From positions 5,936 through 69,935 of the forward strand of contig JBEKFH010000001.1 of NCBI GenBank assembly GCA_050013415.1: 64,000 bases of DNA, written 5' to 3'. The translations under genes were made by a program, and so were the position numbers. Below are positions 1-26,226 of the stretch, piece after piece (positions within the stretch are counted from its first letter, which is position 1; each line of letters opens with the position of its first letter). The notes beneath the pieces were generated by a model that had not been told where the DNA came from, did no database searches, and was given only the letters and a program-made list of their open reading frames with translations. The DNA comes from Streptosporangiaceae bacterium. Lineage in GTDB: Bacteria > Actinomycetota > Actinomycetes > Streptosporangiales > Streptosporangiaceae.

Positions 1-985
1 CGGTGTAGGTCACCGGCTGGCCGACCACCGGGGACGCCGGGGAGGAGGAGACGGCGGTCGTCGTCTGCGCGGCCGAGATGGTCTCGTCCTGGGCGGCCGA
101 GGCAGATGCCTGGTAGTTGCCGTCGCTGTTGTAGGCGGCGGTGACCGCGTCGGTGCCCGGCGCGGTGTAGGTGATCTGGCAGGTGGCGGTGTCAGGGGTG
201 GCCTCGTTCAGCGCCGCGGCGCTGCAGGACGATCCGCTGGTCCCGGTGAAGGTCACCGTCCCGGTCGGCGTACCCGAACCGGGGGAACTGGCGGTCACGG
301 TGGCGGTGTAGGTCACCGTCTCGCCGACCACCGGGGCCGGGTCACTGGTGGTGATGGAGGTGCTCGTGGCGTCTTCGCCGACCGGCACCGATGTTGCCGG
401 GCTCGACGTCGAGGCCTGGTCATTGGCGTCTCCGCCGTAGGCGGCGGTGACCGAGTCGGGGCTGGCGGCGCCGTAGGCGTAGCTGCAGGTGGCCTGGTCC
501 GGCACGGCGGAGTCGAGGGTCGCCACGCAGAGGGTCCCGCCGTCGCCGGCGATGGTCACCTGACCGGTCGGGGTGCCGGCGCCGGGCGCGACGGTGGCCA
601 CCGTGGCGGTGTAGGTGACCGGCTGGCCCACTACCGGCGACGCGGGGCTGGCGGCGAGCGACGTGGTGGTCTGGTCCTGGCTGATCGTCTCGCTCACCGG
701 GCCTGACGCGGAGGCGGCGTAGTTGGAGTCACCGCCGTAGGCGGCCGTGACCGAGTCGCTGCCGGGCGCGCTGTAGGTCGCCTGGCAGGTGGCCTGGTCC
801 GGCGAGCTCTCGCTGAGCGCGGCCGTGCAGAGGGTCCCGGCGCTGCCGGTGAAGGTGACCGTGCCGGTCGGCGTGCCGGTGCCGGGTGCCGCCGGTGCCA
901 CCGTGGCGGTGTAGGTCACCTGCTGGCCCACGACCGGCGACGCGGCGCTGGTGGCGAGCGAGGTGGTGGTGGTCACCGGCGACGC
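1..985 (-). repeat. Coding tandem repeat with an exact 300-bp period (Ig-like domain units), at least 3.3 copies, continuing past the window edge
   Basis: The marker ggcggtgtaggt(c/g)acc recurs at positions 1, 301, 601 and 901. Intervening sequence is conserved, and each unit encodes 100 aa. Confidence 0.8.
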
Positions 986-3640: not shown

Positions 3641-3829
3641 CCGGGTTTCCCTTCAACGGGGCTTTCCCAGGATTCTGAACAATGAGGTCTAACCCGGGCA
3701 ACGGGGCGGAGCCATTATCCTGAAGCGTTCACCCGACATTCGCGTGCCGTTCTTTCTGTCCCCTGCCGGGCCCGTCGTGCTGTCACCTGCCGGGCACGCC
3801 GGCGCCGGCCACCCCGCTGCGGCTCGGCC

Positions 3830-3930
3830 CCGGACGCCATGCCGGCTCTGCCCTGCACGCCATGCCGGCTCGTCCCCGGACGCCATGCCGGCTCTACCCC
3901 GGACGCCATGCCGGCTCTGCCCCGGACGCC
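3830..3930. repeat. Intergenic tandem repeat, 23-bp unit x 4.4 (ccggacgccatgccggctctgcc)
   Basis: Units at 3830-3852, 3853-3875 (diverged), 3876-3898 and 3899-3921, plus a partial unit at 3922-3930. The unit length is not a multiple of 3. The array lies between the divergent secreted-protein gene and the adenylase operon. Confidence 0.9.
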
Positions 3931-4007
3931 TGTGCAGCGCGTGACGCCAGCGGCGCAATGGCGGCCATCTGCCGGTGCGCCGCAAGGGCGCGGAGTGGCT
4001 GCTGAGT

Positions 4008-4047
4008 CTTGTCAAACCCTTGTCAAACGAGCCCGATCGAGTAAGGT
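4008..4047 (+). promoter_or_regulatory. Candidate activator site plus promoter: two 10-bp direct repeats (cttgtcaaac) 11 bp apart, overlapping a TTGTCA(-35)/16 nt/TAAGGT(-10)-like pair
   Basis: Repeats at 4008-4017 and 4019-4028. TTGTCA at 4020-4025 and TAAGGT at 4042-4047. Located in a locally AT-richer patch ~170-200 nt upstream of GTG 4216. Confidence 0.35.
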
Positions 4048-4215
4048 CAATAGCAGGCAGAACGTCCGTAATCGGCACCTGCATTGGTCGTGACAACGCC
4101 GCTTTGGGCGTTCCGCTAACTTTGCTGTGCCTTTAATGAATTGCCCAACAAGCGCAGCCGGTCGCCGGGACTGGTCAGCACGCTGGCCATGAGCGGGCCA
4201 GGAGGGTGAGGTCGG

Positions 4216-4335
4216 GTGACCGGAGGCGCGTACCCGCAGGTGACCAGAGGCGCTCACCCGCAGGTGACCGGAGGCCCGTACCCGCAGGTGGCCAGAGGCC
4301 CGTACCAGCAGGTGGCCGGAAGCCCTTACCCGCAG
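4216..4335 (+). repeat. In-frame tandem repeat, 24-bp unit x 5, each unit starting with GTG (VTGGAYPQ-type octapeptide)
   Basis: Units at 4216-4239, 4240-4263, 4264-4287, 4288-4311 and 4312-4335. Confidence 0.9.
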
Positions 4336-5757
4336 CTTGAGCCGGAGTGGGTAGACGAGGTGCTGCTGGCGGGCGCCGCGGATGATGCGTGCCTGCACCT
4401 GGCCAGGCCCGTCAGCCGGGCTGAGCTGCGCCGGCTCGTGGCCGAGCGGCACCGCGCGCTGGCTGACGCCGGCCTGCAGCGCGGTGGCTCTGTTGCACTG
4501 TGCCTGCCGCCGTCACTTGCGTTCATCACCAATCTGCTCGCCTCCTGGCAGATCGGCGCGCAGGCGTCCCTGCTGGATCACCGGCTCACCTCCTACGAGG
4601 TGGACGTCGCGCTGCAGCGGCTGCTGCCCCAGATCGTGGTGACGGCCGAGCGCTCCGACGGCGGCCCGCTGCGGGCCTTCGCCGAGGTCACCGAGCGCGT
4701 GCGCCCCTATCCGGGCAGCCCTGCTGCCACCACCCACGCCGTCATCCAGCTCAGCTCCGGCTCGACCGGCCCGTCGAAGATCATCGGCCGGGATGCCGCC
4801 AGCCTCGTCGACGAAGTGCAGCGCTACACGCTGATCGACGGCGTCCCGCGCGGCGGCGAGCGCATCGTCTCGCTCGCATCGATGGTGCACGTGCTCGGGC
4901 TCGTCGGCGGCCTGCTCTACGGCCTGCATGCGGGCGTGAACCTGACGATCCCGGCCCGTCTGACGGCAGATGGCATCCTGTCCGCCGTCGCGGCCGGCTC
5001 GCAGCCGACCACGCTGCTGGGCGTTCCCTTCCACATCGAGCTGCTCGCGTCGGTGCGCCACCCCCCGAGGCTGCCGCAGCTCACCGGCATGACCACCGGC
5101 GGCGAACTGGTCCGCGCCGACGTCCATGACGCATTTGTGGATCGCTACGGCGTGCGCCTCGGCAACATGTACGGGATGACCGAAGTCGGCGTCATCGCGA
5201 CCGACCTGTTCGGCGTGCACCGGCCCGCCGTGATGCCGGCCCCCGGCCTTGCCGTCCGCGAGCAGGACGGGGAACTGCATGTCTCGCTGCCGGCCTCGCC
5301 GTACCTCGGCGACCAGGACCCGGGCCGCTGGTCGGACGGCTGGCTGCACACCAGGGACGCCGGCAGCGTGGACGCCCGGACCGGGCTCGTGCGGGTACTC
5401 GGCCGCCGTGACTCCCAGGTCTCCGTCGGCGGCCTCAAGGTCGACCTGACCGAGGTCGAGCACATGCTCGCCGCGCTGCCCGAGGTCGCCGGGGCCGTAG
5501 TGGTGCACGACCACGCGATCGAGGCGTACCTGGTGCTGGCGGAGGGAGCTGAGGTGTCCGCCGTGGAGCGCGAGATCACGACGCGGCTCGCCGCCTACAA
5601 GCGCCCGCGGCGGCTGCACGTGGTCGGGCAGCTGCCGCGCACCGCCACCGGGAAGCTTGTCCGCGACCGTGCCGTGCTCAGCGACCATGCCGTGCTCCGC
5701 GACCATGCCGTGCCAAGCCAGTCTCCCCCGAAAGGAAGCGCCGACCATGATCGATGA
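4216..5757 (+). CDS. Adenylate-forming enzyme (acyl/aryl-AMP ligase or acyl-carrier-protein ligase type)
   Basis: 513-aa ORF with AMP-binding core motifs SSGSTGPSKII, YGMTEVG, TRDAG, GRRDSQVSVGGLKVDLTEVE and PRTATGKLVR. GTG 4216 is preceded by AGGAGG at 4200-4205. The first 40 aa are five octapeptide repeats. Confidence 0.85.
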   Translation: MTGGAYPQVTRGAHPQVTGGPYPQVARGPYQQVAGSPYPQLEPEWVDEVLLAGAADDACLHLARPVSRAELRRLVAERHRALADAGLQRGGSVALCLPPSLAFITNLLASWQIGAQASLLDHRLTSYEVDVALQRLLPQIVVTAERSDGGPLRAFAEVTERVRPYPGSPAATTHAVIQLSSGSTGPSKIIGRDAASLVDEVQRYTLIDGVPRGGERIVSLASMVHVLGLVGGLLYGLHAGVNLTIPARLTADGILSAVAAGSQPTTLLGVPFHIELLASVRHPPRLPQLTGMTTGGELVRADVHDAFVDRYGVRLGNMYGMTEVGVIATDLFGVHRPAVMPAPGLAVREQDGELHVSLPASPYLGDQDPGRWSDGWLHTRDAGSVDARTGLVRVLGRRDSQVSVGGLKVDLTEVEHMLAALPEVAGAVVVHDHAIEAYLVLAEGAEVSAVEREITTRLAAYKRPRRLHVVGQLPRTATGKLVRDRAVLSDHAVLRDHAVPSQSPPKGSADHDR

Positions 5758-6007
5758 GGTCCGCCAGTTCGTCCTCGACTCGCTGACGGAGATGAACTAC
5801 AGCATCGACGACATCGACGACGACACCGTGCTCGGCCCGGCCGGCGCCGACCTGGAGTCGCTCGCCCTCGCCGAGCTCGCCGTGCGGGCGGAGGACCGTT
5901 TCGGGGTGAAGTTCGACGACGCGGACGGCGAGATGCTCACCGGCATGACCGTCGGTGAGTTCTGCCGCGCCGTGGTGCTGCGGATCCAGCCCGCGTCGGC
6001 GCACTGA
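5747..6007 (+). CDS. Acyl carrier protein (small stand-alone carrier)
   Basis: ATG 5747 is preceded by GAAAGGAAG. The product is 86 aa with the carrier motif GADLESLALAEL. The longer start at 5657 in the ORF track lies inside the upstream gene. Confidence 0.8.
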   Translation: MIDEVRQFVLDSLTEMNYSIDDIDDDTVLGPAGADLESLALAELAVRAEDRFGVKFDDADGEMLTGMTVGEFCRAVVLRIQPASAH

Positions 6008-6009
6008 CC

Positions 6010-6516
6010 ATGCCCGGTGAACCGCCCATGCCCGGTGAACCGCAGCCCGTCCCCGGCCTGCCACAGCCCGTGCGCGGCCTGCCGCTGCGCCAGGACGTGG
6101 TCGCGATGCTCGCCACCTACGGTGACCGCCAGCCGGACCAGGTCCCGGAAGTGATCGACTCCCTGGAACTGGCCTGGCTGCTGCACCAGATCGAGCAGCA
6201 TTACGGCGCGCTCGACATCGATGACGACATGATCGCCCGCATGTCGACAGTCACCGGCGCGGTCGGCGTTCTGGCGGATCTGAGGGTCGGGTCATCGGAT
6301 GACTTATGCACCCGCCGAGGCTCCGGCGGCGACCGCCCGCAGGGGGGCGGGCACGGTGGTCGTGACCGGCGCCGCCGCCGCGTCCGCGTACGGCCGGGGA
6401 ACCGAGGCGCTGCTGTCCGGGGTGCTGTCGGGCCGGCCCGCCTTCGGGCCCGTCCAGCGGTTCGACATCACGCAGCGGCGAGTGCGCGTCGCGGCGGCCA
6501 TGCCGGGGTGCCCTGA
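6010..6516 (+). CDS. Second carrier-protein-like gene; the true 3' end is doubtful
   Basis: ATG 6010 lies 2 nt after the ACP stop. The carrier-like motif EVIDSLELAWLLHQIEQHYG is present and helical carrier-like sequence runs to about 6290. After that the frame reads Arg/Gly-rich junk and overlaps the KS gene by 217 nt until the first stop at 6516. Confidence 0.5.
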   Translation: MPGEPPMPGEPQPVPGLPQPVRGLPLRQDVVAMLATYGDRQPDQVPEVIDSLELAWLLHQIEQHYGALDIDDDMIARMSTVTGAVGVLADLRVGSSDDLCTRRGSGGDRPQGGGHGGRDRRRRRVRVRPGNRGAAVRGAVGPARLRARPAVRHHAAASARRGGHAGVP

Positions 6517-7474
6517 GCTACTCACCGAGGTGACCCGCGCCGCCGCTGAGGCGTGCGATGACGCTGGCCTTTCGCCGTCCGGCCGCGCCTGCAGCCCGCT
6601 GTTCCTCGCCATCCACGGCGACCCGGCGATCGCGCGGGCGCCCGAGGCTGACCAGCCCGGCCTGGGGCCGGGGGCATTCGCCGCCGCGGTGGCCGGCCGC
6701 TGCGGCCTCGCGGAGCAGGACATCCGCTGCTACATGTCGGCATGCGTGGCCGCGAGCACCGCGATCGCCGACGCGGCCGCGATGATCGCCCGGGGCCACG
6801 CCGACCGCGTCGTCGTGGCCGGCGGGTACCTCGTCGACTCCGACCAGTTCGCGCTGTTCGACGCGGGCCGCGCGCTGGCTGACGACGGCCAGGTGCGCCC
6901 GTTCAGCGCCGGGCGGCGCGGGCTGCTGCTGGGCGACGGCGTCGGCGCTGTCGTGATCGAGTCGCGGGAGTCCGCGCGGGCGCGACGGGCGCCGCCGCTG
7001 GCGCGGATCGCGGGCTGGGGCCGCACCGGCGACGCGTACCACCCGTGCCAGCCGCGCCCCGACGGCCTTGGCCTGGCGCGGGCGATCACGGCCGCGCTGC
7101 AGCGGGCCGGCCTGGCAGCGGAGAATCTCGGCTACATCAACGCCCACGGGTCCGGCACCGGCCAGAGCGACCCGGCCGAGGCCAGCGCGCTGCGGCTCGC
7201 GCTCGGCGACGCGGCCCAGGCCGTGCCGGTCAGCTCCACCAAGTCGCTGCATGGCCAGGCCCTGGAGGCGTCCGGCGTGCTGGAGCTGATCGTCACGATG
7301 CTGGCGGCCCGCAAGGGGATGCTGCCGGTCAACGCCGGGTTCCTCGGCGCGGACGACAGCTGCCGCCTGAACCTCGTGCTGGACGAGCCGCTGGCCGCTA
7401 CCCCGGAGTTCGCGATGAGCCTCAACGCCGCCTTTGGCGGCGCGAACACCGCGCTTGTGGTCGGCCTGCCATGA
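6299..7474 (+). CDS. Beta-ketoacyl synthase, FabF/KS-alpha-like
   Basis: 391 aa. Has a GTVVVTG N-terminus, the active-site Cys in MSACVAASTAI, and His motifs INAHGSGT and KSLHGQALEASG. Its stop overlaps the next start (ATGA at 7471-7474). Confidence 0.85.
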   Translation: MTYAPAEAPAATARRGAGTVVVTGAAAASAYGRGTEALLSGVLSGRPAFGPVQRFDITQRRVRVAAAMPGCPELLTEVTRAAAEACDDAGLSPSGRACSPLFLAIHGDPAIARAPEADQPGLGPGAFAAAVAGRCGLAEQDIRCYMSACVAASTAIADAAAMIARGHADRVVVAGGYLVDSDQFALFDAGRALADDGQVRPFSAGRRGLLLGDGVGAVVIESRESARARRAPPLARIAGWGRTGDAYHPCQPRPDGLGLARAITAALQRAGLAAENLGYINAHGSGTGQSDPAEASALRLALGDAAQAVPVSSTKSLHGQALEASGVLELIVTMLAARKGMLPVNAGFLGADDSCRLNLVLDEPLAATPEFAMSLNAAFGGANTALVVGLP

Positions 7475-8175
7475 CTGGCCGGCCTGCCATGACACCGCTG
7501 GCACCGCTACCACCGCTGGCACCCGTGCGGCCGCTCGCGCCACCGGAACCGGTGGCGCCGCTGGCGCCCGTGGCATCCGCCGGCCTCGCCGCGCTGCACG
7601 CGGCGGCGGACACGGCCGGACTGACGGTCTTGTCGTCTGCGTCCTGGCCCGAGACGGACGCCGACAGCGAGGTAACCGCGCTCGCCGGATTCATCGAGTC
7701 CCATTTCAGCCCGCTGCTGGCCGAGGTCGCCGGGCGGGCCCTGCGCCGCCGCGGGCAGCCGCAGGCATCCGGGCCGCAGGCATCCGGGCCGCAGGCATCC
7801 GGGCCGCAGGCATCCGGGCCGCAGGCATCCGGCACGGTCACCGCCGTCGTGCTGGTGACGGCCCTCGGCGACGTGACCAGCGCGACCCGCGTCGCCGCCG
7901 CGGTGGACTCCGGCAGGCGGGTCGCCCCGCTGATGTTCTTCCAGTCCGTGCCGAACGCCGTGGCCGGCTACCTGGCCGCGCGATGGCACCTGACCGGGCC
8001 GGTCGTCTGCGTCAGCCAGGCAACCGCGGCACTGGACATCGCCGCGCTGCTGATCCAGGACGCAGACGCGGACGAGGCACTGGTGGTGTGCGCCGACCTG
8101 GCAGTAAGCAGCGGCGGCGGGGACCACGGCGCCGCCATTCTCGTGACCGGCCCAGCCGACACTGGTCGGCCGTGA
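7471..8175 (+). CDS. KS-like / chain-length-factor-like protein lacking the active-site Cys
   Basis: 234 aa from ATG 7471, the in-frame part of ORF 7045-8175. The KS N-terminal-like segment GPVVCVSQATAALDIAALLIQ aligns to GPxxxVxTACSSSL with the Cys replaced. There is no C-terminal His-His half. The protein contains (PQASG)x5. Confidence 0.6.
   Translation: MTGRPAMTPLAPLPPLAPVRPLAPPEPVAPLAPVASAGLAALHAAADTAGLTVLSSASWPETDADSEVTALAGFIESHFSPLLAEVAGRALRRRGQPQASGPQASGPQASGPQASGPQASGTVTAVVLVTALGDVTSATRVAAAVDSGRRVAPLMFFQSVPNAVAGYLAARWHLTGPVVCVSQATAALDIAALLIQDADADEALVVCADLAVSSGGGDHGAAILVTGPADTGRP
7759..7833 (+). repeat. In-frame tandem repeat, 15-bp unit x 5 (ccgcaggcatccggg; PQASG)
   Basis: Perfect units at 7759, 7774, 7789 and 7804. 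The last unit at 7819 has one change. Confidence 0.95.
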
Positions 8176-8212
8176 ACCGCGTGAACCGCGTGAACCTGAA
8201 AGGGAAGAAGCG

Positions 8213-9307
8213 ATGAACATCCTGGACATCGACCACATCGAGCTCTACGTGGGTGATGCGATTGCGGCGGCACAGTCCCTGTGCACGGCCTACGGCTTCC
8301 GTGTCTACGGCCACGGCGGCCCGGACACGGGCCTGCCGGGGCAGCGCACCGTCCTGCTCGGCCAGGGTGACATCCGGATGCTGCTGACCTCCGGGTTGCA
8401 CAAGGACCATCCCGCCAGCCAGTTCGTGGCCAAGCACGGCGACGGCGTGGCCGTGACCGCGTTCCGCACCGACAGCGCCGCCGCCGCCTACGCCGGCGCG
8501 GTCGCGGCCGGCGGATCCAGCATCCGGCAGCCCCGCACCTGGGAGAACGACGAGGCCCGCGTCGTCACCGCGGAGGTCGGGGGCTTCGGCGACGTGGTCT
8601 ACCGTCTCGTCGAGCGCCATGGCACCGCCGACCAGTTCCAGCCGCGGGCGATCCAGATGGAGCCGGGCGCTGCCGCCGGGGCGGACGAGGACCTGCTGCG
8701 CAGCATCGACCATGCGGCGGTGTGCGTGCCGGCCGGCGAGCTCGACTCCACCGTTGCCTTCCACGAGCAGGTGTTCGGCTTCACGGTCATCTTCCAGGAG
8801 TACATCGAGGTCGGCGACCAGGGCCTGATGTCCAAGGTGGTGCAGAGCCCGTCCGGCGGAGTGACCTTCACGATCCTGCAGCCGGATCTCAGCCGCCAGG
8901 CGGGCCAGATCGACGATTTCCTGGCCTGGCACGACGGCGCCGGGGTGCAGCACATTGCGTTCCTGACCACGGACATCGTGCACGCGGTCCGGACCTTTGC
9001 CGGCCGGGGCGTGGGATTCGCGGTCACGCCGTCGAGTTACTACGACGCGCTGGCCGCGCGGCTGGGCGCGACCGACATCGCACTGGAGGCGCTGCGGCCG
9101 CTCGGCATCCTGGTCGACCGCGACCACTGGGGACAGATGTACCAGATCTTCGCGAAGTCGACGCACATCCGGCGCACGTACTTCCTCGAGCTGATTGACC
9201 GGCACGGAGCACGCACGTTCGGCACGAGCAACATCCCGGCGCTGTACGCGGCCAAGGAGCGCGAGCTCGCCGAGATCCGCGACACGGCGGGCACCAGCAG
9301 TGCCTGA
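8213..9307 (+). CDS. 4-hydroxyphenylpyruvate dioxygenase family enzyme (HPPD or 4-hydroxymandelate synthase)
   Basis: 364 aa with two VOC-type modules. The family-typical C-terminal block is GQMYQIFAKS...YFLELIDRHGARTFGTSNIPALYAAKEREL, and HIAF is present. RBS is GGGAAG. HPPD and HmaS cannot be told apart by eye. Confidence 0.8.
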   Translation: MNILDIDHIELYVGDAIAAAQSLCTAYGFRVYGHGGPDTGLPGQRTVLLGQGDIRMLLTSGLHKDHPASQFVAKHGDGVAVTAFRTDSAAAAYAGAVAAGGSSIRQPRTWENDEARVVTAEVGGFGDVVYRLVERHGTADQFQPRAIQMEPGAAAGADEDLLRSIDHAAVCVPAGELDSTVAFHEQVFGFTVIFQEYIEVGDQGLMSKVVQSPSGGVTFTILQPDLSRQAGQIDDFLAWHDGAGVQHIAFLTTDIVHAVRTFAGRGVGFAVTPSSYYDALAARLGATDIALEALRPLGILVDRDHWGQMYQIFAKSTHIRRTYFLELIDRHGARTFGTSNIPALYAAKERELAEIRDTAGTSSA

Positions 9308-9403
9308 CCCGGCCCGCGCACCGGGCCCGGCCGCGCCGGCCGCCCGCCCGGCCCGCCACCGCCCAGCCCGCCGAGGCCCGGCCCGCCCAGGGAGGAATGA
9401 TCC

Positions 9404-10333
9404 GTGAGCATTTCGGTCACCCCGCCGTTCACGCTGACGGACGAGGAGCGCTCGCTGCTGCCGTCAGACTCTGACGTCGAGTTCTACGCCGAGCACGGCT
9501 GGTATCTCAGCAAAAAGCTCTTCACCGACGACGAGGTGGACGAGCTAGTCGCGGCCAGCGAGCGGTACTACGCCGGCGAGCGCGACCGCACCCTGCCAGT
9601 GCGCCCGCCGCGGCTGGCGTACTGGGATCCGTCCCAGGGCGATGTGCAGCGGCACAACGACTACGTCCACTACGAGCACGACGGCCTGGCGAGGCTGCTG
9701 CGCAAGCCGCTGATCGGCGCCGTCGCCGCCGCCCTGGCCCGCGCGGAGGAGATCCGCGTGTTCCAGTCCACGCTGATCTACAAGCCGCCGATCGCCGCGG
9801 AGCCGACCAACGTGGTGCCGTGGCACTTCGACAAGCACTACTGGTCGCCGTCGACGTCCGACAAGATGCTGACCGCGTTCATCCCGTTCCACGACTGCGA
9901 CGAGGAGATGGGCACGATCACGATGATCGACGGCAGTCACCGGTGGCAGGAGATCCGCCGCGATGACTCGATGACCCGGCACTTCGCGGAGCGGGAGGGC
10001 AGCGACCTGGAGCGGTTGCTGGCGGAGAACGCGGCCTACAACAACGCCAGCGTGGTCAAGGTCCCGATGATCATTCCCAGCGGCCACATGAGCTTCCACC
10101 ACTGCCGGATCTACCACGGCAGCGCGGCCAACCACAGCCCGCGTCCCCGCCGGGCCATCTCGTTCCACCTGCAGGACGGCGAGAACGCCTACCGCCCGTT
10201 CGTGCTGAGCACCGGCGAGGTCCTCACGTACAACCACGACGTGCTGGTCCGGCGCCTGCCCGATGGCCGCCCCGATTATGGCGACCCCGAATTCTGTCCC
10301 GTTTTGTGGCGTAACCCCGATCTGTCCGGCTGA
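9404..10333 (+). CDS. Phytanoyl-CoA dioxygenase (PhyH) family Fe(II)/2-oxoglutarate oxygenase
   Basis: 309 aa. Motifs WHFDKHYW (HxD), DGSHRW and a distal SFHHCRIYHGS / RRAISFHL block. GGGAGG lies before GTG 9404. Confidence 0.75.
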   Translation: MSISVTPPFTLTDEERSLLPSDSDVEFYAEHGWYLSKKLFTDDEVDELVAASERYYAGERDRTLPVRPPRLAYWDPSQGDVQRHNDYVHYEHDGLARLLRKPLIGAVAAALARAEEIRVFQSTLIYKPPIAAEPTNVVPWHFDKHYWSPSTSDKMLTAFIPFHDCDEEMGTITMIDGSHRWQEIRRDDSMTRHFAEREGSDLERLLAENAAYNNASVVKVPMIIPSGHMSFHHCRIYHGSAANHSPRPRRAISFHLQDGENAYRPFVLSTGEVLTYNHDVLVRRLPDGRPDYGDPEFCPVLWRNPDLSG

Positions 10334-10359
10334 CGGACACCGCCTGAGGAGGATGTGAC

Positions 10360-11160
10360 ATGTCGCGCTATGACTGGGGCCAGCGGCACCCGGGAATCGA
10401 CCGCCTTGAGGAGCAGATCAGCGAGGCCAGGGTCGCGGTCGTCGCGCACCCGCTGTACGCCGCGCTGGACAGCCACCAGGCGATCCGGACGTTCCTCGAG
10501 CACCACGTGTTCGCCGTGTGGGACTTCATGTCGCTGCTCAAATCGCTGCAGCGCAACCTCACCTGCGTGGAGCTGCCGTGGGTGCCCACCGGCCCGACCG
10601 GCAGCCGCCGCCTGATCAACGACATCGTGCTCGTCGAGGAGAGCGACGAGCTCCGCGGCGGGTTCATCAGTCACTTCGAGCTCTACCTGGCCGGCATGGA
10701 AGAGGCCGGCGCCGACACGTCGGTCATCAATGCCTTCATCGGCAAGCTCCGCGCCAGGCGGCCGGTGCTCGAAGCGCTTGACGAGACAGGCGTTCCGGCG
10801 CCGGCGGCCGAGTTCGTCCGGCTGACCTGGGGCCTGATCGAGGGCGCGCCCGTGCACGCGCAGGCCGCGGCGTTCGCGTTCGGCCGGGAGGACCTGATCC
10901 CTGACATGTTCCAGCAGGTCGTCGGCGTCAACGAGCGCCTCGGGTCGCTCGACACGTTCGTCGACTACCTGGCTCGTCACATCGAGGTCGACGGGGAGGA
11001 GCACACGCCGATGGCAATGCAGATGCTGGCTGACCTCTGCGGCGAGGACGACGCCAAGTGGGCGGAGTGCGCCGCCACGATCAACCTCGCCCTCGCCGCC
11101 CGCGCCCGCCTCTGGGACGGCATCCTCGCCGCCATCGGCGACCGGGTGCCGGCGGCATAG
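10360..11160 (+). CDS. DUF3050 family protein (heme-oxygenase-like helical fold)
   Basis: 266 aa. Contains HPLYAAL....[24 protein letters not shown] and a later [10 protein letters not shown]. This matches my recollection of DUF3050 / MgoB-like proteins. RBS is GAGGAGG. Confidence 0.6.
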
Positions 11161-11191
11161 CAGCGGCGCAGCGGCCGGGAGAGGCGGTCAT

Positions 11192-12157
11192 ATGACCGAC
11201 TCCGCCGACCTGTACCGGACCGTGCGGCTGATCCGCCGGTTCGAGCAGCGGGCGATCGAGATGGTGCGCAGCGGCGTGATCCCCGGGGGCATCCACCCCT
11301 ACATCGGCGAGGAGGCGATTGCGGCGGGCGTCTGCGCGGCGCTGCGCCCGGACGATCTCATCACCAGCACCCACCGCGGCCACGGGCACGTGCTGGCGAA
11401 GGGCGCCGACCCCCTCCGCATGCTGGCCGAGCTGGCGGGCCGCGAGACCGGGCTCAACAGCGGGCGCGGCGGGTCGATGCACGCCGCGGACGTCAGCGCG
11501 GGCATCTGCGGCGCCAACGCCATCGTCGGCGCGTCGGCCGCGATCGCGGCCGGGGTGGCCTGGTCGCACCGGCGCGCCGGGCACGACCGCGTCGTCGTCA
11601 CCTTCTTCGGCGACGGCGCGGTCAACCAGGGCGTGCTGCTCGAAGCGCTGAACCTGGCGTCGCTGCTCCGGCTGCCGGTCCTGTTCGTCTGCGAGAACAA
11701 CCAGTTCGCGACGTCGACGCGGCTGCGGGACTCGACAGCCGGCACCATCACCGGCCGCGCTGAGGCGTTCGGCATCCCGGCCGAGACCATCGACGGCATG
11801 GATCCGGAGGCAGTGCTGGCGGCGGCATCCGGCGCCGTCGCCCGAGCCAGGGCAGGGGACGGCCCGGCGTTCCTGGAGTGCCTGACCTACCGGTTCGACG
11901 CCCACCACACCTGGGAGCACATCGCCCGCCCCCGCTACCGCAGCGACGAGGAAGTGGCCGCTGGCAGCGCCCGCGACCCGCTGGAGATCCAGGCAGCGCG
12001 AGTGCCGGCGGCGGTGCGCGCGCGGATCGACGGCGAGATCGAGGATCTGCTGGACCAGGCGCAGCGCTTCGTGGACGCCAGCGGTGAGCCCGACCCGGCA
12101 GGGGCGCTGGACCACCTCTACGCGGGCGGGCTGCGCGGGCGGGCGGGGACGGCCTGA
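11192..12157 (+). CDS. TPP-dependent 2-oxoacid dehydrogenase E1 component, alpha subunit
   Basis: 321 aa with the TPP motif FFGDGAVNQGVLLEALNLASLLRLPVLFVCENNQFA, and YIGEEA and HRGHGH upstream. Confidence 0.85.
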   Translation: MTDSADLYRTVRLIRRFEQRAIEMVRSGVIPGGIHPYIGEEAIAAGVCAALRPDDLITSTHRGHGHVLAKGADPLRMLAELAGRETGLNSGRGGSMHAADVSAGICGANAIVGASAAIAAGVAWSHRRAGHDRVVVTFFGDGAVNQGVLLEALNLASLLRLPVLFVCENNQFATSTRLRDSTAGTITGRAEAFGIPAETIDGMDPEAVLAAASGAVARARAGDGPAFLECLTYRFDAHHTWEHIARPRYRSDEEVAAGSARDPLEIQAARVPAAVRARIDGEIEDLLDQAQRFVDASGEPDPAGALDHLYAGGLRGRAGTA

Positions 12158-13128
12158 TGCCCATCCTGTCGTACCTGCGGGCGCTCAACCGGGCGCTGGC
12201 CGCCGAGATGGAACGCGACCCGGCCGTCTGCGTGTTCGGCGAGGACATCGGCATCGCGGTCAGCAACGTCACCACTGGCCTGCTCAAGCGGTTCGGGCCG
12301 GAGCGGGTCATCGACATGCCGATCTCGGAGCAGGCGTTCACCAGCTTCGCCACCGGGGCGGCGATGTCCGGCTCCCGGCCCGTCGTGGAATACCAGATAC
12401 CGGCGCTCCTCTTCCTGGCGTTTGAGCAGATCGCGAACCAGGCGCACAAGTTCTCCCTGATGACCGGCGGACAGGTCAAGGTCCCGGTGACCTACCTGCT
12501 GCCGAGCTCGGGCTCCCGCGTCGGCTGGGCCGGGCAGCACTCGGACCATCCGTACAGCCTGTTCGCGCACGTCGGCGTGAAGACCGTGGTGCCGGCCACG
12601 CCGACCGACGCCTACGGCCTGCTGGTCAGCGCGATCCGTGACGACGACCCGGTGATCCTCTTCGGGCCGGCCGGCGCCGTCGCGCGGCGCGAGAACGTTG
12701 ATTTCGGCGCGCTGGCCCCGGTGCCGCTCGGCGTCGGCCGGGTGCACCGGCCCGGCACCGACGTGACGGTCGTGGCGGTCGGGCATCTCGTGCACGACGC
12801 GCTCGCGGTGGCCGACGAGCTCGCGGGCACGATCTCGGTCGAGGTGTTCGACCCGCGCACGCTGTACCCGTTCGACTGGGCCGGCCTGGCGGCCTCGCTG
12901 CAGCGCACCGGCAGGCTCGTCGTCATCGACGATTCCAACCGGACCTGCGGCATCGGCGGCGAGATCCTGGCCACCGCCGCCGAGGAGATGCACCTGATCG
13001 CCCCGCCGAAGCGGGTCACCCGGCCGGACGGAGCCGTGCTGCCGTTCGCCCGCGAGCTCGATCTCGCGCTGCAGCCGACCCGCAGCCAGCTGCGCACGGC
13101 GATCGAGACCGTGGCGAAAACCCGCTGA
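12157..13128 (+). CDS. 2-oxoacid dehydrogenase E1 component, beta subunit
   Basis: 323 aa with the typical N-terminus LNRALAAEMERDPAVCVFGEDIG...RVIDMPISEQAF. The start overlaps the alpha-subunit stop (TGATG). Confidence 0.85.
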   Translation: MPILSYLRALNRALAAEMERDPAVCVFGEDIGIAVSNVTTGLLKRFGPERVIDMPISEQAFTSFATGAAMSGSRPVVEYQIPALLFLAFEQIANQAHKFSLMTGGQVKVPVTYLLPSSGSRVGWAGQHSDHPYSLFAHVGVKTVVPATPTDAYGLLVSAIRDDDPVILFGPAGAVARRENVDFGALAPVPLGVGRVHRPGTDVTVVAVGHLVHDALAVADELAGTISVEVFDPRTLYPFDWAGLAASLQRTGRLVVIDDSNRTCGIGGEILATAAEEMHLIAPPKRVTRPDGAVLPFARELDLALQPTRSQLRTAIETVAKTR

Positions 13129-13132
13129 GTCT

Positions 13133-13198
13133 GCCCGGCGGGGTCGCTGGGAGTCCGCCCGGCGGGGTCCCTGGGAGTCCGCCCGGCGGGGTCCCTGG
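13133..13198. repeat. Intergenic tandem repeat, 24-bp unit x 2.75 (gcccggcggggtccctgggagtcc)
   Basis: Units at 13133-13156 and 13157-13180, plus a partial unit at 13181-13198. The array lies between the convergent E1-beta and PPTase genes. Confidence 0.9.
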
Positions 13199-13265
13199 CG
13201 CGGGCACCGGCGGTCGGCTGGCGGGCACCGTCCCTCCGGGGGAGCCCCGTCCGCCTTCCGCGCGT

Positions 13266-14036
13266 TCAGCCGCCCGGCATTGAACAGCGTGGCTGGGACT
13301 CCGCTGTAGCTCTTACTGCAGTGAAGTCCCAGCCACGCGTTTCCAGGCCGCCCCGGCCCCAGCCAGCGCCCGGCCAGCCGGCGGTTTCGAGGACGAACGG
13401 GGCCTCGCCGGCCAGTGCCACCGCAGCGCGGAAGCCCGCCGGGGCGCAGATGTCCGCTACCCGGTGCGGGCTGGCCGGCTCGGCGCAGCTGACCACGTCG
13501 CGGTCGTGAACCGCGATCGTCAGGTTGGGCCAGAGGCGGCCGCCGGCGGACTTGACGACCGCCTCCTTGCGGGCCCAGAGGCGGGCGAACCGGTCCGCCC
13601 GCGTGCCCGCGTCGCGGCCCGCCGCGACGTACCCGGCCTCCTCAGGCGGGAAGAACCGGGCGGACAGCCCCACCGTGTCCAGGCCAGGCACCAGGTGCTG
13701 CACATCCACGCCCACCGGGCGGGCGGCGGCGATGGCCGCCGCGATCATGTCGCCGGAGTGCGAGAGGCTGGTCTGCAGCCCGGACCACGGGGCTGCCAGC
13801 ACGGGCTTGCCGTACTGGCCGGGGATCCAGCTGAGCGCCGCGGGCGGCGCTCCCAGCTCGCGGCCGGCCAGGATCCGCAGCGCGCCGTGCGCGATGATGA
13901 ACCGCTGCTGGTCGCGCGGGCTCAGGAACGCCGCCGCACGTGCGCGCTCGCTGTCGTCGAGCACGTCCCGGCAGCTGGCCGCGGTCTCTGCTGGCACGTC
14001 GACGGGAATGATCCAGACCCGGACGAAGTCGGTCAC
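13266..14036 (-). CDS. 4'-phosphopantetheinyl transferase, Sfp type
   Basis: Motifs KPVL, SLSHSGD, PVGVDVQ and WARKEAVVKS. I place the start at GTG 14036 because it forms a GTGA overlap with the upstream aminotransferase stop (14033-14035). The 14171 start in the track would overlap that gene by 139 nt. Confidence 0.8.
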   Translation of the reverse strand: MTDFVRVWIIPVDVPAETAASCRDVLDDSERARAAAFLSPRDQQRFIIAHGALRILAGRELGAPPAALSWIPGQYGKPVLAAPWSGLQTSLSHSGDMIAAAIAAARPVGVDVQHLVPGLDTVGLSARFFPPEEAGYVAAGRDAGTRADRFARLWARKEAVVKSAGGRLWPNLTIAVHDRDVVSCAEPASPHRVADICAPAGFRAAVALAGEAPFVLETAGWPGAGWGRGGLETRGWDFTAVRATAESQPRCSMPGG

Positions 14037-15349
14037 GACCGGACGTCGGCGATCAGCGTGGCCAGGCGGCGGACGCCCGCATCGATCTGCTCGGTCGGCA
14101 GCGCGCTGCACGACAGCCGGATCGCGTGGCTGCCGCCGCCGGCGGCGTAGAAGAAGCTCATCGGCGTCCACAGCACGCCGTAATCCCGCGCCGAGAGCTC
14201 GAGCAGCTTCTCGTCAGCGCGGACGGGCACCTGCAGGACGGCGAAGAAGCCGCCGCTCGGCGAGTTCCAGGTGATCGCCGGGTCGCTGAAGTGCCGCTCG
14301 AGCGCGGCCAGCAGAGCGCGGAGGTTGCGCCGGTAGAACGCGATCTTCTCGCGGTTCGCAGCGCGCAGGCTGCAGTCGCACGAGACGAGCACGCCGCCGA
14401 TGACGGCCTGCGCGATCGGGGAGGTATTGACGGTGACCATGCTCTTGACCGTCGAGAGCTCGTCAGCCAGCAGGCTGCGGTGCCCGGCCGCGCTGACCAC
14501 GGCCTGATCCGCCACGAGGAAGCCCACCCGGGCGCCGGGGAACACCGACTTGGCGAACGAGCCGAGGTACAGCACCCGCTGATCGGCGTCCAGCGACTTC
14601 AGCGCCGGCCGGCGCCTGTCGTCGAGCCCGAACAGCCCGTACGGGTCGTCCTCCAGGATCAGGAGGTCCTCCTCGGCCGCCACCTCGATCAGCCCGCGCC
14701 GCACGCCGGCGCTCAGCGAGACGCCGGACGGGTTGGCGAAGTTCGACACCACGTACAGCGCCCGCGGCCGGCGGCCGCTCGCGCGCACCTCGCGGGCGAC
14801 CCGCGCGACCGTCTCCGGGCGCAGGCCGCGGGCTGTCTCGGGCACCGGCACCACGGTGACGCCGAGCACCCGCGCGGCGCCGGTGAAGCCGACGTAGCAG
14901 GGCTCGGCGGCGAGGACGACGTCCGCCGGGTCCGCGCACAGCCCGCGCAGCGCGATGATCATCGCCTCCTGGCAGCCTGAGGTCACCATGACCGACTCAG
15001 CCGGAACGCGGATGTCCTCGTCAATCTCCAGCATCCGCGCGATCATCGCCCCTAGCTGGCCGTTCGTCCGGCCGTACTGCAGAATGGCCTGCCGGACGCG
15101 CGCCTCGCCCATGCCCTGATCGCGCAGGCACCCGACATAAGCAGCCAGGTAACGCCCGACGTCCTCGACAGCATAGAACTCATCGAATGGCCGGCCCGCT
15201 GCCAGCGAGATCGCGTCAGGGAAACGGCTGGCAACCTCATTGAGGAAGTTCATCGACGCTGACACGGGATCGGTGACCGACGTGTGCAGCGACTCACGCG
15301 CAAGCTCGACCATCAGTGCGGGCGCCCTGCCTCCGTGACGTGACCGCAT
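14033..15349 (-). CDS. PLP-dependent aminotransferase, ARO8/HpgT-like (class I/II fold)
   Basis: 438 aa. Has MNFLNEVASRFPDAISLAAGRP and the PLP-lysine context LGSFAKSVFPGARVGFLV. An alternative start is ATG 15313. Confidence 0.8.
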   Translation of the reverse strand: MRSRHGGRAPALMVELARESLHTSVTDPVSASMNFLNEVASRFPDAISLAAGRPFDEFYAVEDVGRYLAAYVGCLRDQGMGEARVRQAILQYGRTNGQLGAMIARMLEIDEDIRVPAESVMVTSGCQEAMIIALRGLCADPADVVLAAEPCYVGFTGAARVLGVTVVPVPETARGLRPETVARVAREVRASGRRPRALYVVSNFANPSGVSLSAGVRRGLIEVAAEEDLLILEDDPYGLFGLDDRRRPALKSLDADQRVLYLGSFAKSVFPGARVGFLVADQAVVSAAGHRSLLADELSTVKSMVTVNTSPIAQAVIGGVLVSCDCSLRAANREKIAFYRRNLRALLAALERHFSDPAITWNSPSGGFFAVLQVPVRADEKLLELSARDYGVLWTPMSFFYAAGGGSHAIRLSCSALPTEQIDAGVRRLATLIADVRS

Positions 15350-19789: not shown

Positions 19790-20965
19790 TCAGCAGCCGC
19801 CGACACGTCGGATCGCTCCCTCAGCGCGCAGGTCGGCCAGGGCGGGGTAGCCGTCCACGGCCATGAGCAGGTCGGCCTCGGCGAGCAGCGCGCGGATGAT
19901 GTGCACCACGGCGTCCTCGCCGCCGAGGGCGAGCGCGTAAATATAGGGGCGGCCGATCCCGACTGCGGTGGCGCCCAGGGCCAGGGCCTTGACCACATCG
20001 GCGCCGGTGCGGACACCGGAGTCGAAGAGCACCGGGGTGTCGCCCGCGGCGTCGACCACGTCGGGCAGGGCCTCAAGGGTCGAGAGGCCGCCGTCCGCCT
20101 GCCGGCCGCCGTGGTTGGAGCAGTAAATGCCCTCGACGCCGTAGTCCTTGGCCCGGCGCACGTCGTCGGGGTGGTTGATGCCCTTGAGCACGATCGGCAG
20201 GCTGGTGGCTTCCCGCATCCAGGCCAGATCGTCCCAGCCCACCGAGAGCCCGAAGATCTTCATCCATTCCTCCACCGCGGCGCGCGGGTCATCCTCGGGG
20301 CTCCTGGCCAGGCGCTTGCGGAAAGACGGGTCCGAGAAGTAGTTGGCTAGGGCGTAGCCGCGAAATTCCGGGGTGTTCGCGAGGTTCAGCTCCCCGGGGC
20401 GCCAGCCGAATATCCAGCTGTCGAGGGTGACGATAAGAGCGCGGTATCCGGCGTGCTCGGCCCGCTGGATCAAGCTCGTGGCGACGTCGCGGTCGCTGGG
20501 CGTGTAGAGCTGGAAGAACGCGGGGGTGTCGCCCAGCCGGGCGGCCACCTGCTCCAGGGGGTCTTGGGCCAGGGTCGACACGGCCCACGGCACACCGGTG
20601 CGGGCGGAAGCTCCCGCCAGGGCGAGGTCGCCGTGGAGGTCCTGCGCGCTGATGCCGCTGACCCCGATCGGGGCCAGGAACAGCGGGCTGGGCAGGTCGA
20701 TCCCGAACAGCGACACGGACAGGTCGCGCTTGGTGGCCTGCTGCATCATCCGCGGCACGATCCCCCAGCCGTCGAAAGCCTCGACGTTGGCGCGCTGGGT
20801 ACGGCCCGCGCCGGCGCCCCCCGCCACGAAAGACAGGACCCAGTCCGGAAGGGCCGCCGACCCGTTCCGCTCCAGCGTCTGGTAGTCCATCGGCCAGCGC
20901 GGCAGCCTCCCCTGAACGATGCCTGCCTCGTAGATCTCATTCTGGTAATCGCCGTACTGGGACAT
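19790..20965 (-). CDS. FMN-dependent alpha-hydroxy acid oxidase/dehydrogenase (lactate 2-monooxygenase / mandelate oxidase family)
   Basis: 391 aa. Motifs MSQYGDYQNEIY, FFQLY, LIVTLD, IVLKGI, SNHGGRQ and DSGVRTG.D..KALALGA. RBS is GAGAGGA. Confidence 0.8.
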   Translation of the reverse strand: MSQYGDYQNEIYEAGIVQGRLPRWPMDYQTLERNGSAALPDWVLSFVAGGAGAGRTQRANVEAFDGWGIVPRMMQQATKRDLSVSLFGIDLPSPLFLAPIGVSGISAQDLHGDLALAGASARTGVPWAVSTLAQDPLEQVAARLGDTPAFFQLYTPSDRDVATSLIQRAEHAGYRALIVTLDSWIFGWRPGELNLANTPEFRGYALANYFSDPSFRKRLARSPEDDPRAAVEEWMKIFGLSVGWDDLAWMREATSLPIVLKGINHPDDVRRAKDYGVEGIYCSNHGGRQADGGLSTLEALPDVVDAAGDTPVLFDSGVRTGADVVKALALGATAVGIGRPYIYALALGGEDAVVHIIRALLAEADLLMAVDGYPALADLRAEGAIRRVGGC

Positions 20966-25915: not shown

Positions 25916-25920
25916 GGCGG

Positions 25921-26202: not shown

Positions 26203-26226
26203 ATCGCGCCTCCTTGGCTTGCCCGG

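Follow-up and report, generated by a model that had tools for sequence, protein, structure and literature searches.

Five co-oriented genes in the genome of an uncultured Streptosporangiaceae bacterium form the conserved 3′ half of an actinomycete operon of 10–13 genes that probably makes a new, reactive natural product with a nitrogen–nitrogen (N–N) bond. The genes lie at positions 8213–13128 of a 64,000-nucleotide stretch of contig JBEKFH010000001.1 (assembly GCA_050013415.1, positions 5,936 to 69,935), hereafter the window. They are predicted to encode, in order, a hydroxymandelate synthase (HmaS)-type dioxygenase, a PhyH-family oxygenase, a DUF3050 protein of the HamA family, and the alpha and beta subunits of a thiamine diphosphate (ThDP)-dependent 2-oxoacid dehydrogenase E1. 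Each component family is known; their union with an ava-like module of acyl ligase, acyl carrier proteins (ACPs), ketosynthase (KS), chain-length-factor-like partner (CLF) and diazotase is a new combination. An earlier, sequence-only reading of this DNA could map the five genes to no known pathway, and our literature search likewise turned up no characterised cluster in which these genes occur together; subscription journals were largely uncovered by that search, and an example could be missed.

The five-gene block is conserved across actinomycetes

The block is a compact run of genes on one strand of DNA with the G+C content of an actinomycete (about 72% across the window). Gene calls from third-position G+C content (GC3) placed open reading frames (ORFs) at 8213–9307, 9404–10333, 10360–11160, 11192–12157 and 12157–13128, with successive gaps of 96, 26, 31 and −1 bp. 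Families were assigned with Pfam and NCBIfam profiles, PF11251 and PF05721 among them, and structural relatives were sought in the PDB. All five genes and their domains came out as the sequence-only reading had described them.

This arrangement recurs far beyond chance. Scanning species-representative genomes with a HamA-like protein alignment yielded 80 loci, against which all window proteins were run by tblastn. We counted a locus as complete when all five genes were contiguous and co-oriented; HmaS–PhyH–HamA–E1α–E1β is present in this form, over 4.3–6.0 kb, in 31 of the 80 genomes. Dactylosporangium, more than ten Micromonospora species, Catellatospora, Luedemannella, Kribbella, Kitasatospora and Catenulispora carry complete blocks, as do Streptosporangiaceae and other metagenome-assembled genomes (MAGs).

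The block is half of an autonomous, mobile biosynthetic unit and not a set of tailoring genes for the nonribosomal peptide synthetase (NRPS) of the window. A ligase–ACP–ACP–KS–CLF set precedes it in 25 of the 31 complete loci, and a diazotase homologue 51–64% identical to that of the window lies near it in 28 (counting homologues above 45% identity within 10 kb of the block). The diazotase gene usually sits inside the operon, directly after CLF and before an extra FabF-like ketosynthase, KS2. The canonical order of ligase, two ACPs, KS, CLF and diazotase is found in Micromonospora, Kribbella, Catellatospora, Kitasatospora and the Micromonosporaceae/Actinomycetota MAG loci L014 and L016. An NRPS accompanies the block essentially only in the window lineage, a gene for an Hmo-type α-hydroxyacid oxidase in one complete locus (and in locus L007), and an aminotransferase gene in six. 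Micromonospora, Kribbella, Catellatospora and Kitasatospora have the block without an NRPS; in the first three the cassette stands alone with exporters. Exporters of the SMR and MFS families and SARP/LuxR regulators are found near the block, and in one MAG (L036) the cassette is coupled to a type I polyketide synthase (PKS) and has been kept without its E1 pair. Because the block is conserved with ligase, ACP, KS–CLF and diazotase genes in genera lacking NRPS, Hmo and aminotransferase genes, its earlier description as an NRPS tailoring cassette is not supported.

The window lineage carries a rearranged version of this module. Whereas the diazotase gene follows E1β in Dactylosporangium and Catenulispora, in the window it is displaced to 39828–41471, and KS2 has been lost. 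The module has also been joined to genes for an Hmo, an aminotransferase, a phosphopantetheinyl transferase (PPTase), a protein resembling a condensation (C) domain, a KASIII enzyme, a glycosyltransferase and the NRPS.

Environmental RNA data are consistent with transcription of the operon in situ as one unit. The source lineage is uncultured and recurrent in peat and moss metagenomes, with Streptosporangiaceae MAGs as its closest named relatives. Peat metatranscriptome contigs of at least 99% identity cover the genes for the ligase, ACPs, KS, HmaS, PhyH, HamA and both E1 subunits, and bridge the ACP1/ACP2, ACP2/KS and CLF/HmaS junctions, at low depth and with DNA carry-over possible. Together with the short or overlapping gaps between genes, the contig over the CLF/HmaS junction lends indirect support to the co-transcription that had been proposed from the sequence, a support weakened by the possible carry-over.

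Catalytic signatures of the block enzymes

The first enzyme appears to be a HmaS and not a 4-hydroxyphenylpyruvate dioxygenase (HPPD). The Fe(II) dioxygenase encoded at 8213–9307 (+ strand), previously left in the joint HPPD/HmaS family, matches TIGR01263 with 321 bits and scores 293 bits against A. orientalis HmaS (2R5V) versus 210 bits against S. avermitilis HPPD (1T47). Four positions that we take to separate the two enzymes are T214, I216, I335 and Y339 in AoHmaS and P, N, F and F in HPPD. Read from the alignment, the window protein has T, L, I and Y, and all 16 orthologues compared have T or V, I or L, I or V, then Y, the HmaS-type pattern throughout. The His/His/Glu iron ligands are kept in the window protein and the same number of orthologues. 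The neighbouring gene, for a PhyH-family Fe(II)/2-oxoglutarate (2OG) oxygenase (9404–10333, +; PF05721, 86 bits), adjoins HmaS in all 31 complete loci. Its product is distant from its nearest structures, SnoK, SnoN and PhyH, with scores of 52 bits or less.

The DUF3050 protein is a member of the HamA family of haem-oxygenase-like iron oxygenases. Encoded at 10360–11160 (+), it matches PF11251 with 314 bits (cutoff 22), a family that a newer Pfam release names ‘HamA_HO-like’. It aligns to the HamA crystal structure 9VWB (2025) with 186 bits over residues 14–261, at about 45% identity to HamA. The metal- and 2OG-binding positions of HamA (H40, E84, H96, R167, H199 and R240) are kept in the window protein and 17 orthologues, with R240 invariant. 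D203 is likewise conserved across the orthologues, and the E206 position varies among E, Q and F. The link to MgoB/Pvf-type clusters that the sequence-only reading drew is thereby borne out. HamA has been reported to contain mononuclear iron, bind 2OG and belong to the haem-oxygenase-like enzymes, and to oxidise N-hydroxy-valine on the HamD carrier domain in the biosynthesis of the diazeniumdiolate fragin; a 2024 genetic study still termed the N–N-forming step elusive.

The E1 pair is intact and stands alone. E1α (11192–12157, +; PF00676, 220 bits) retains the GDG...NN ThDP motif. E1β (12157–13128, +; Transket_pyr and Transketolase_C domains), whose start overlaps the E1α stop, is the best-conserved gene of the block, at 69–95% identity. 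Structural matches are to E1α of pyruvate and branched-chain 2-oxoacid dehydrogenases (PDH/BCKDH) and to E1β subunits, as in the PDH/BCKDH heterotetramer. Canonical lipoamide-dependent E1 enzymes have an active-site loop YRxxGHSxxD. The window E1α shares with its orthologues in 16 loci the loop YRF(D/E)AHHT(W/F/M)E (residues ~231–251), and this alteration may reflect a different acceptor. When the window and 37 related cassette loci (38 sequences in all) were scanned, no gene showed the E2 catalytic motif (DHRxxDG) or a lipoyl-lysine motif; the sole match, on the minus strand at window 19743, lies outside genes and was taken as chance. The earlier remark that the window holds no E2/E3 thus stands, and no complete dehydrogenase complex lies beside the E1 pair in the 37 related loci either.

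Three loci carry an additional gene within the block. In L014, L016 and L028 a phenol-type O-methyltransferase (PF00891 plus a dimerisation domain; 10881–11873 in L028) is inserted between HamA and E1α.

A putative diazotase and the front half of the operon

The gene that explains the context of the cassette was overlooked in the sequence-only reading. Located at 39828–41471 (+), with the MbtH and NRPS genes downstream of it, it is annotated as a stand-alone adenylation (A) domain. Profile, structure and residue comparisons indicate that its product is not an amino-acid-adenylating enzyme but a homologue of the ATP-dependent diazotases and N-nitrosylases of the CmaA6/AvaA6/Tri17 clade. The protein matches NF058622 (AvaA6, 3-aminoavenalumate diazotase) over its full length with 437 bits, the next model reaching 128; this score lies under the 975-bit equivalog cutoff and so indicates membership of the clade, not orthology to AvaA6. 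PDB scores are 365 bits for 8ZTZ/9IJF, 329 for Tri17 (9BQ0/8TF7) and 265 for 9XB8, with ordinary ANL ligases at 91 or less. We take 8ZTZ/9IJF to be CmaA6, an identity not confirmed from the CmaA6 paper, the PDB name being just ‘Putative AMP-binding enzyme’. Mutagenesis of CmaA6 found His224, Phe267 and Lys533 to be required for nitrous-acid capture; their equivalents are kept in the window protein and 13 orthologues, in a mapping that assumes a 16-residue offset from the PDB-chain tag. Tri17 has been described as a promiscuous N-nitrosylase that acts on a hydrazone. Its orthologues sit inside the operon in other genera, and the predicted diazotase would place the cassette in N–N bond chemistry.

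The front half of the operon would load and extend an acyl unit. An acyl-ACP ligase of the ANL superfamily (4216–5757, +; AMP-binding and AMP-binding_C) holds the position of AvaA1/CmaA1 and is the first operon gene in other genera, at 56–87% identity. Its A4 motif is His-type and not Asp-type, which suggests an enzyme for aryl or alkyl acids rather than amino acids; its PDB matches (oxalate- and benzoate-CoA ligases, Cfl) are weak and insufficient to name a substrate. The true start is probably downstream of a repetitive N-terminus. The two ACPs that had been noted upstream in the same operon are ACP1 (5747–6007, +; PP-binding, weak AcpM/ACP NCBIfam matches, an 86-aa gene in related contigs) and ACP2 (6010–6300, +). 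The start of ACP2 is uncertain. The protein has a DSLE serine motif and no Pfam match, it is conserved across genera, and relatives have genes of 66–78 aa called there.

The ketosynthase (6299–7474, +) has both Pfam KS domains, N- and C-terminal, and an intact Cys149/His248/His283 triad. It is followed in every locus by the gene for a short CLF-like partner (7489–8175, +; weak Ketoacyl-synt_2 match). We considered and set aside two closer assignments for this pair. The KS matches the cispentacin AmcF model over its full length with 170 bits, below the 325-bit cutoff, and the CLF-like protein matches AmcG weakly (26 bits, cutoff 80), so that membership of AmcF/AmcG fails the curated NCBIfam equivalog cutoffs. 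A place among highly reducing (HR) type II ketosynthases was likewise rejected: FabF structures outscore Iga11 (6KXD), and we claim no orthology to the ava/cma KS.

Repeats mark two of these genes. The CLF-like gene contains a (PQASG)n repeat (window 7759–7833) with five copies in the window and L005, three in L004 and two in L001, a length polymorphism between strains that are otherwise 99–100% identical. The N-terminus of the ligase (4216 to ~4330) has a PQV-type repeat resembling it.

HamA-like genes in other N–N contexts

HamA-like genes also occur apart from the block. Genes 65–70% identical to that of the window lie in kinamycin/fluostatin-type hydrazino cassettes (L048 6953–13040, L050, L043, L055 and L024), in the order amidase, glutamine-synthetase-like, HamA-like, 4Fe–4S ferredoxin and an ORF of ~645 aa that looks like KinJ and has no Pfam match. 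Aromatase/cyclase, ring hydroxylase and ABM genes flank these cassettes, which lack HmaS, PhyH and E1; the kinamycin and fosfazinomycin papers give the HamA-like gene no role. A third context, at 8100–20726 of L038 (Dactylosporangium sp. NPDC051484), combines an aminotransferase-like gene, a HamA-like gene (69% identical), a didomain of adenylation and thiolation (T) domains, an E1α/β-like pair and an NRPS. This E1 pair is 36–38% identical to that of the window, and HamA-like and E1 genes thus co-occur here independently of the block.

Searches around these genes for further N–N enzymes gave mostly negative results. A CreD-type lyase (Lyase_1) signature was found only in the hydrazino loci L043 and L055, and in neither the window nor any cassette locus. 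ORFs by the cassette that we examined for likeness to KinJ (782 aa in L036; 452 and 442 aa in Micromonospora and Kribbella; at 25031, 56023 and 62830 in the window) showed no similarity. Dob3, a diazo-forming metalloenzyme described in a 2026 Nature paper, belongs to the AurF-type ferritin-like enzymes rather than the HDOs and was set aside as not bearing on the operon.

A model for the operon and its alternatives

The cassette very likely belongs to an ava-like, nitrite-dependent N–N pathway. Within that frame we tentatively favour a composite model in which the cassette, taking the place of the starter genes AvaH/AvaI, would supply the building block and the oxidised nitrogen for a carrier-protein pathway, with substrates and step order inferred. 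The HmaS-type dioxygenase would convert 4-hydroxyphenylpyruvate to 4-hydroxymandelate, and the PhyH oxygenase, perhaps with the Hmo-like flavin mononucleotide (FMN) oxidase of the window lineage, would oxidise this to 4-hydroxyphenylglyoxylate. E1α/β with ThDP would then decarboxylate the glyoxylate to a C7 unit at the 4-hydroxybenzoyl level, a step that agrees with the arylglyoxylate decarboxylation offered as an alternative in the sequence-only reading. The ligase would put the C7 unit on an ACP for extension by KS–CLF. On the carrier-bound intermediate the HamA-family oxygenase would generate an oxidised or nucleophilic nitrogen function, and the diazotase homologue would join this to AMP-activated nitrite, so that either a diazo or a diazeniumdiolate group results.

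Several observations fit this scheme. Chain shortening through HmaS, oxidation and ThDP-dependent decarboxylation follows the logic of the mandelate pathway, and bacterial routes from tyrosine by way of 4-hydroxyphenylpyruvate, then 4-hydroxymandelate and then 4-hydroxybenzaldehyde to 4-hydroxybenzoate have been reported. The O-methyltransferase inserted in three loci suggests that the product keeps a phenolic aromatic intermediate, and the aryl/alkyl-acid-type motif of the ligase supports loading of an aryl unit. PglB/PglC, whose role has only been proposed, offer a precedent for orphan E1 pairs in aryl-2-oxoacid pathways, and the recurrence of HamA-like genes in the hydrazino cassettes, a second nitrite-dependent N–N context, also agrees with the scheme. 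A bolder reading, in which the operon encodes an enzymatic route to N–N bonds not recognised before, strikes us as unlikely: the HamA-family oxygenase would make a carrier-bound hydroxylamine, or a nitrosating nitrogen independent of the aspartate–nitrosuccinate (ANS) pathway, and the CmaA6/Tri17-type ligase would couple AMP-activated nitrite to it, so that a tyrosine-derived aryl ketide comes to bear a C-diazeniumdiolate or a diazo function.

The weak point of the composite model, and the reason that it remains tentative, is the origin of the nucleophilic nitrogen: the minimal operon has no aminotransferase, and none of its enzymes obviously introduces an amine. The characterised type I diazotases considered here mostly act on aromatic amines of the o-aminophenol type (Tri17 on a hydrazone), and nothing in the operon is known to make such an amine. 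Further points weigh against the model. The KS is FabF-like and not specifically near the HR type II KS 6KXD, and with its CLF partner reaches only sub-cutoff AmcF/AmcG matches; what carries the parallel with ava/cma is synteny together with the diazotase, and not a demonstrated orthology of every part. With neither E2 nor lipoate at hand, the E1 pair lacks an obvious acceptor for electrons or acyl groups, and the L036 cassette persists without it. The published biochemistry of HamA is preliminary. No CreD-type lyase that could account for the nitrite was found in the window or the cassette loci. As to that last point, 72 of 134 surveyed ava-like clusters also lack the ANS nitrite genes, which were treated there as optional (PMC10777205), so that their absence is not disqualifying.

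An arylglycine could supply the missing amine. HmaS with PhyH or Hmo, and an aminotransferase from the cluster or from housekeeping metabolism, would make 4-hydroxyphenylglycine (Hpg), which the ligase would load on an ACP and HamA would N-hydroxylate. The diazotase would then nitrosate the hydroxylamine to a C-diazeniumdiolate, or diazotise the amine to an α-diazo thioester (or ketone, after KS extension), with the E1 pair in a separate Pgl-like role such as turning an arylpyruvate into an arylacetyl unit. HamA does work on carrier-tethered aminoacyl groups in the diazeniumdiolate pathway (HamA/HamC were reported to act on Val-S-T), and both the N-nitrosylase promiscuity of Tri17 and the PglB/C precedent for an E1 pair suit this route. 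The window and some relatives do have genes for an Hmo and an aminotransferase, and L038 unites a HamA-like gene with an A-T didomain, an aminotransferase and an E1 pair. We nevertheless regard the route as doubtful: of the 31 complete loci 25 have no aminotransferase and 30 have no Hmo, the ligase lacks the Asp-type motif of amino-acid-adenylating enzymes, and the strictly conserved E1 pair is given no necessary role. Somewhat less probable still is that the HamA-like oxygenase, possibly with PhyH and E1, is itself an ANS-independent source of nitrite or a nitrosating species through exhaustive N-oxygenation of an amino acid. E1 would dispose of the resulting 2-oxoacid, and the product would feed the diazotase here and KinJ-type enzymes elsewhere. 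That HamA-like genes 65–70% identical recur in two nitrite-dependent N–N systems, the block operon and the kinamycin-type hydrazino cassettes, and co-occur with an E1 pair in the third architecture of L038, speaks for such a role. So does the missing CreD-type lyase in cassette loci (the hydrazino loci L043 and L055 do carry one), as published ava-like and KinJ clusters often lack CreD/E and need another nitrite source. The chemistry, however, has no biochemical precedent; the strict conservation of HmaS and the inserted phenol O-methyltransferase argue that the aromatic skeleton is kept and not discarded, and the hydrazino loci manage without HmaS, PhyH and E1.

Two further readings would take the block out of N–N chemistry. 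If it tailored the NRPS product, HmaS, Hmo and the aminotransferase would feed Hpg to an A domain, PhyH would β-hydroxylate the tethered residue, and E1 would pass a C2 unit, either glycolyl or hydroxyethyl, on to the ACPs, for which quinocarcin, naphthyridinomycin and scleric acid are the precedents. Suitable neighbours (NRPS, MbtH, stand-alone C domain, Hmo and aminotransferase) lie within the window, ACPs lie upstream, and Qnc-type systems do use ThDP subunits with an ACP. We consider this very unlikely given that the block is kept without an NRPS in four genera and is coupled to a type I PKS in L036. The analogy to quinocarcin and naphthyridinomycin drawn in the sequence-only reading fails in addition on the lipoyl and acyltransferase module that defines those systems, which is absent from the 38 sequences scanned, and on the E1 pair, which is of PDH/BCKDH type and not the transketolase-like split of Qnc. 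A weaker point is that none of the four A domains has an Hpg-like code, by an approximate extraction against a reference sequence. Least credible, to the point of being nearly dismissible, is a catabolic or primary-metabolic operon for mandelate-like degradation of aromatic 2-oxoacids that lies near secondary-metabolite genes by chance. HmaS, an α-hydroxyacid oxidase and a ThDP decarboxylase do mirror the mandelate pathway, but the block is strictly linked to ACPs, KS–CLF, the diazotase and the HamA oxygenase, has exporters and SARP/LuxR regulators nearby, and is accompanied by no benzaldehyde dehydrogenase or ring-cleavage genes that we could see.

Neighbouring genes and the rest of the window

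The region 3′ of E1β differs from genus to genus. In Micromonospora and Kribbella a protein of 442–452 aa, 41–80% mutually identical and without a Pfam or NCBIfam match, is encoded right after E1β (12737–14095 in L026, 12705–14033 in L031); the window lineage and Dactylosporangium have in its place a divergent stand-alone C-like protein. An insertion of ~1.6 kb occupies this region in L001, L002, L003 and L006 (12770–14740 in L001; window equivalent ~13129–13265). It contains four small ORFs, one with a match to a DUF6036/AbiEii-like nucleotidyltransferase, reminiscent of a toxin–antitoxin system. The PPTase gene follows it in L001 and L002, and the contigs of L003 and L006 end earlier. Micromonospora, Catellatospora and Kribbella also have in common a group of AMP-ligase, MFS and GDSL-lipase genes that is transcribed divergently.

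Accessory genes follow the operon on the opposite strand of the window. The lineage-specific PPTase (13266–14036, −; ACPS domain), found also in close relatives and Dactylosporangium, is followed by a class I/II aminotransferase (14033–15112, −; Aminotran_1_2), a candidate arylglyoxylate aminotransferase, and by the FMN-dependent α-hydroxyacid oxidase of the Hmo/mandelate-dehydrogenase family (19790–20965, −; FMN_dh, 352 bits). A trio at 25031–27195 (−), encoding a 294-aa protein without a Pfam match, a third carrier protein, ACP3 (93 aa), and a KASIII enzyme, accompanies the block in Dactylosporangium, Catenulispora and close MAGs. Genes for an alpha/beta-hydrolase and the stand-alone C-like protein also lie downstream of the block; further on come those for regulators of the LuxR and SARP types, for a glycosyltransferase and for ABC transporters, and at 34315–35970 a polysaccharide-deacetylase domain is fused to a type II thioesterase domain.

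The NRPS of the window has an unusual architecture of its own. An MbtH gene and four NRPS modules follow the diazotase homologue, and the first NRPS protein (41955–49676) ends in a LanB-type domain: an A-T-C-A-T arrangement continues, from about residues 1880–2141 onward, into two stretches of Lant_dehydr_N. The two modules after it are each C-A-T. This fusion suggests tRNA-dependent glutamylation and dehydration, or aminoacyl addition, on the NRPS-bound peptide. Just past the NRPS (59243–62041) a TrpB/TrpA pair resembling a second copy, which may supply tryptophan to the cluster, is followed by a GntR/UTRA regulator.

Implications

N–N natural products such as diazo compounds, diazeniumdiolates and hydrazides are rare, reactive and pharmacologically potent, and steps of their biosynthesis are still open. 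Two of these are the role of HamA/PvfA/MgoB in diazeniumdiolate signals and the source of nitrite in diazotase and KinJ clusters without CreD/E. The operon described here bears on both by uniting, in one conserved unit, a HamA-type oxygenase with a nitrite-activating ligase, as these proteins are predicted to be. The operon stands a realistic chance of bringing to light new N–N chemistry in which the HamA family takes part. If the HamA-family oxygenase does furnish the hydroxylamine or nitrosating nitrogen, the long-elusive function of the HamA/PvfA/MgoB family would be assigned, and it would become clear by what means the many diazotase and KinJ clusters without CreD/E obtain or handle oxidised nitrogen. 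These questions are directly testable because cultured, tractable strains carry the compact operon, among them Micromonospora halophytica DSM 43171 (locus L026, positions ~876–14095), Dactylosporangium aurantiacum NRRL B-8018 and several Kribbella and Kitasatospora; it is also present, with matching metatranscriptome contigs, in an abundant Streptosporangiaceae lineage of peat. The operon points to an unexplored family of tyrosine-derived N–N metabolites, made alone or grafted onto NRPS and PKS lines.

Comparison with known systems

The E1 pair and the KS–CLF pair each have partial counterparts in characterised clusters. The glycolicacyl-ACP systems QncN/QncL/QncM, NapB/D and SclQ1–4 resemble the operon in joining a split ThDP enzyme to an ACP in a secondary-metabolite cluster. 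They use ketose phosphates and are defined by a lipoyl-attachment and acyltransferase module (the QncL C-terminus, SclQ4), whereas cassette loci lack that module and their E1 is PDH/BCKDH-like. Nearer in setting is the pristinamycin L-phenylglycine operon, in which the orphan E1 pair PglB/PglC, also without E2/E3, belongs to an aryl-2-oxoacid pathway; its role in converting phenylpyruvate to phenylacetyl-CoA has only been proposed. Its neighbours are a dioxygenase, a hydrolase and an aminotransferase, and, unlike the window operon, it has no HmaS, HamA, ACPs, KS or diazotase. The cispentacin genes AmcB/F/G/H, a ‘minimal type’ type II PKS-like set, offer an adenylate-forming ACP ligase, an ACP, a KS and a motif-less partner of short length; nothing in the operon points to the loading of 2-oxoglutarate or to the closing of a ring.

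Two other systems match the cassette through single enzymes. The Hpg set of glycopeptide and CDA clusters (HmaS, Hmo and HpgT) shares its HmaS-type dioxygenase with the block, and Hmo-like and aminotransferase genes are present in the window; across loci these two are not conserved with the cassette, no Hpg code was recognised, and HmaS is tied instead to PhyH, HamA and E1αβ. In the ham/pvf/mgo systems, which make the diazeniumdiolates fragin, valdiazen and leudiazen-type compounds, HamA (equivalent to PvfA and MgoB) has the family and the metal- and 2OG-binding residues of the DUF3050 protein. The likeness may extend to carrier-protein-based chemistry and, by analogy, to an N–N end product. 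Neither the AurF-like HamC/PvfB nor the NRPS HamD/PvfC, with its adenylation, thiolation and reductase domains (A-T-R), lies beside the cassette in the window or annotated related loci. The cupin HamB and the SnoaL-like HamE are missing too; in contrast to ham/pvf/mgo, the operon has a ligase, free-standing ACPs, KS–CLF and a putative nitrite-activating ligase.

The front half of the operon finds its parallel in the ava (avenalumic acid, Streptomyces sp. RI-77) and cma (p-coumaric acid, Kutzneria albida) clusters. In these an ACP receives the aromatic amino-acid starter, a type II PKS extends it, and the N–N bond is formed from nitrite; the starter, 3-amino-4-hydroxybenzoate, comes from AvaH/AvaI and the nitrite from CreE/CreD homologues (PMC10777205). 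Neither the window nor the fully annotated related loci have an annotated aldolase- or DHQS-like gene that could stand for AvaH/AvaI. AvaB and an AvaA7-type NAD(P)H-dependent denitrification enzyme were not recognised either, though no AvaA7 reference was compared; a short-chain dehydrogenase/reductase gene is present in some loci only. Ketoreductase and dehydratase genes are not conserved with the block, most genera have the extra FabF-like KS2, and the HmaS–PhyH–HamA–E1αβ block itself is without a counterpart in ava/cma. What the systems share is the core: the ava/cma operon runs from the acyl-ACP ligase A1 through the ACPs A2 and A3, the KS A4 and the CLF A5 to the diazotase A6 (PMC10777205, Table 1), and this order and these families match the front half of the canonical operon gene for gene.

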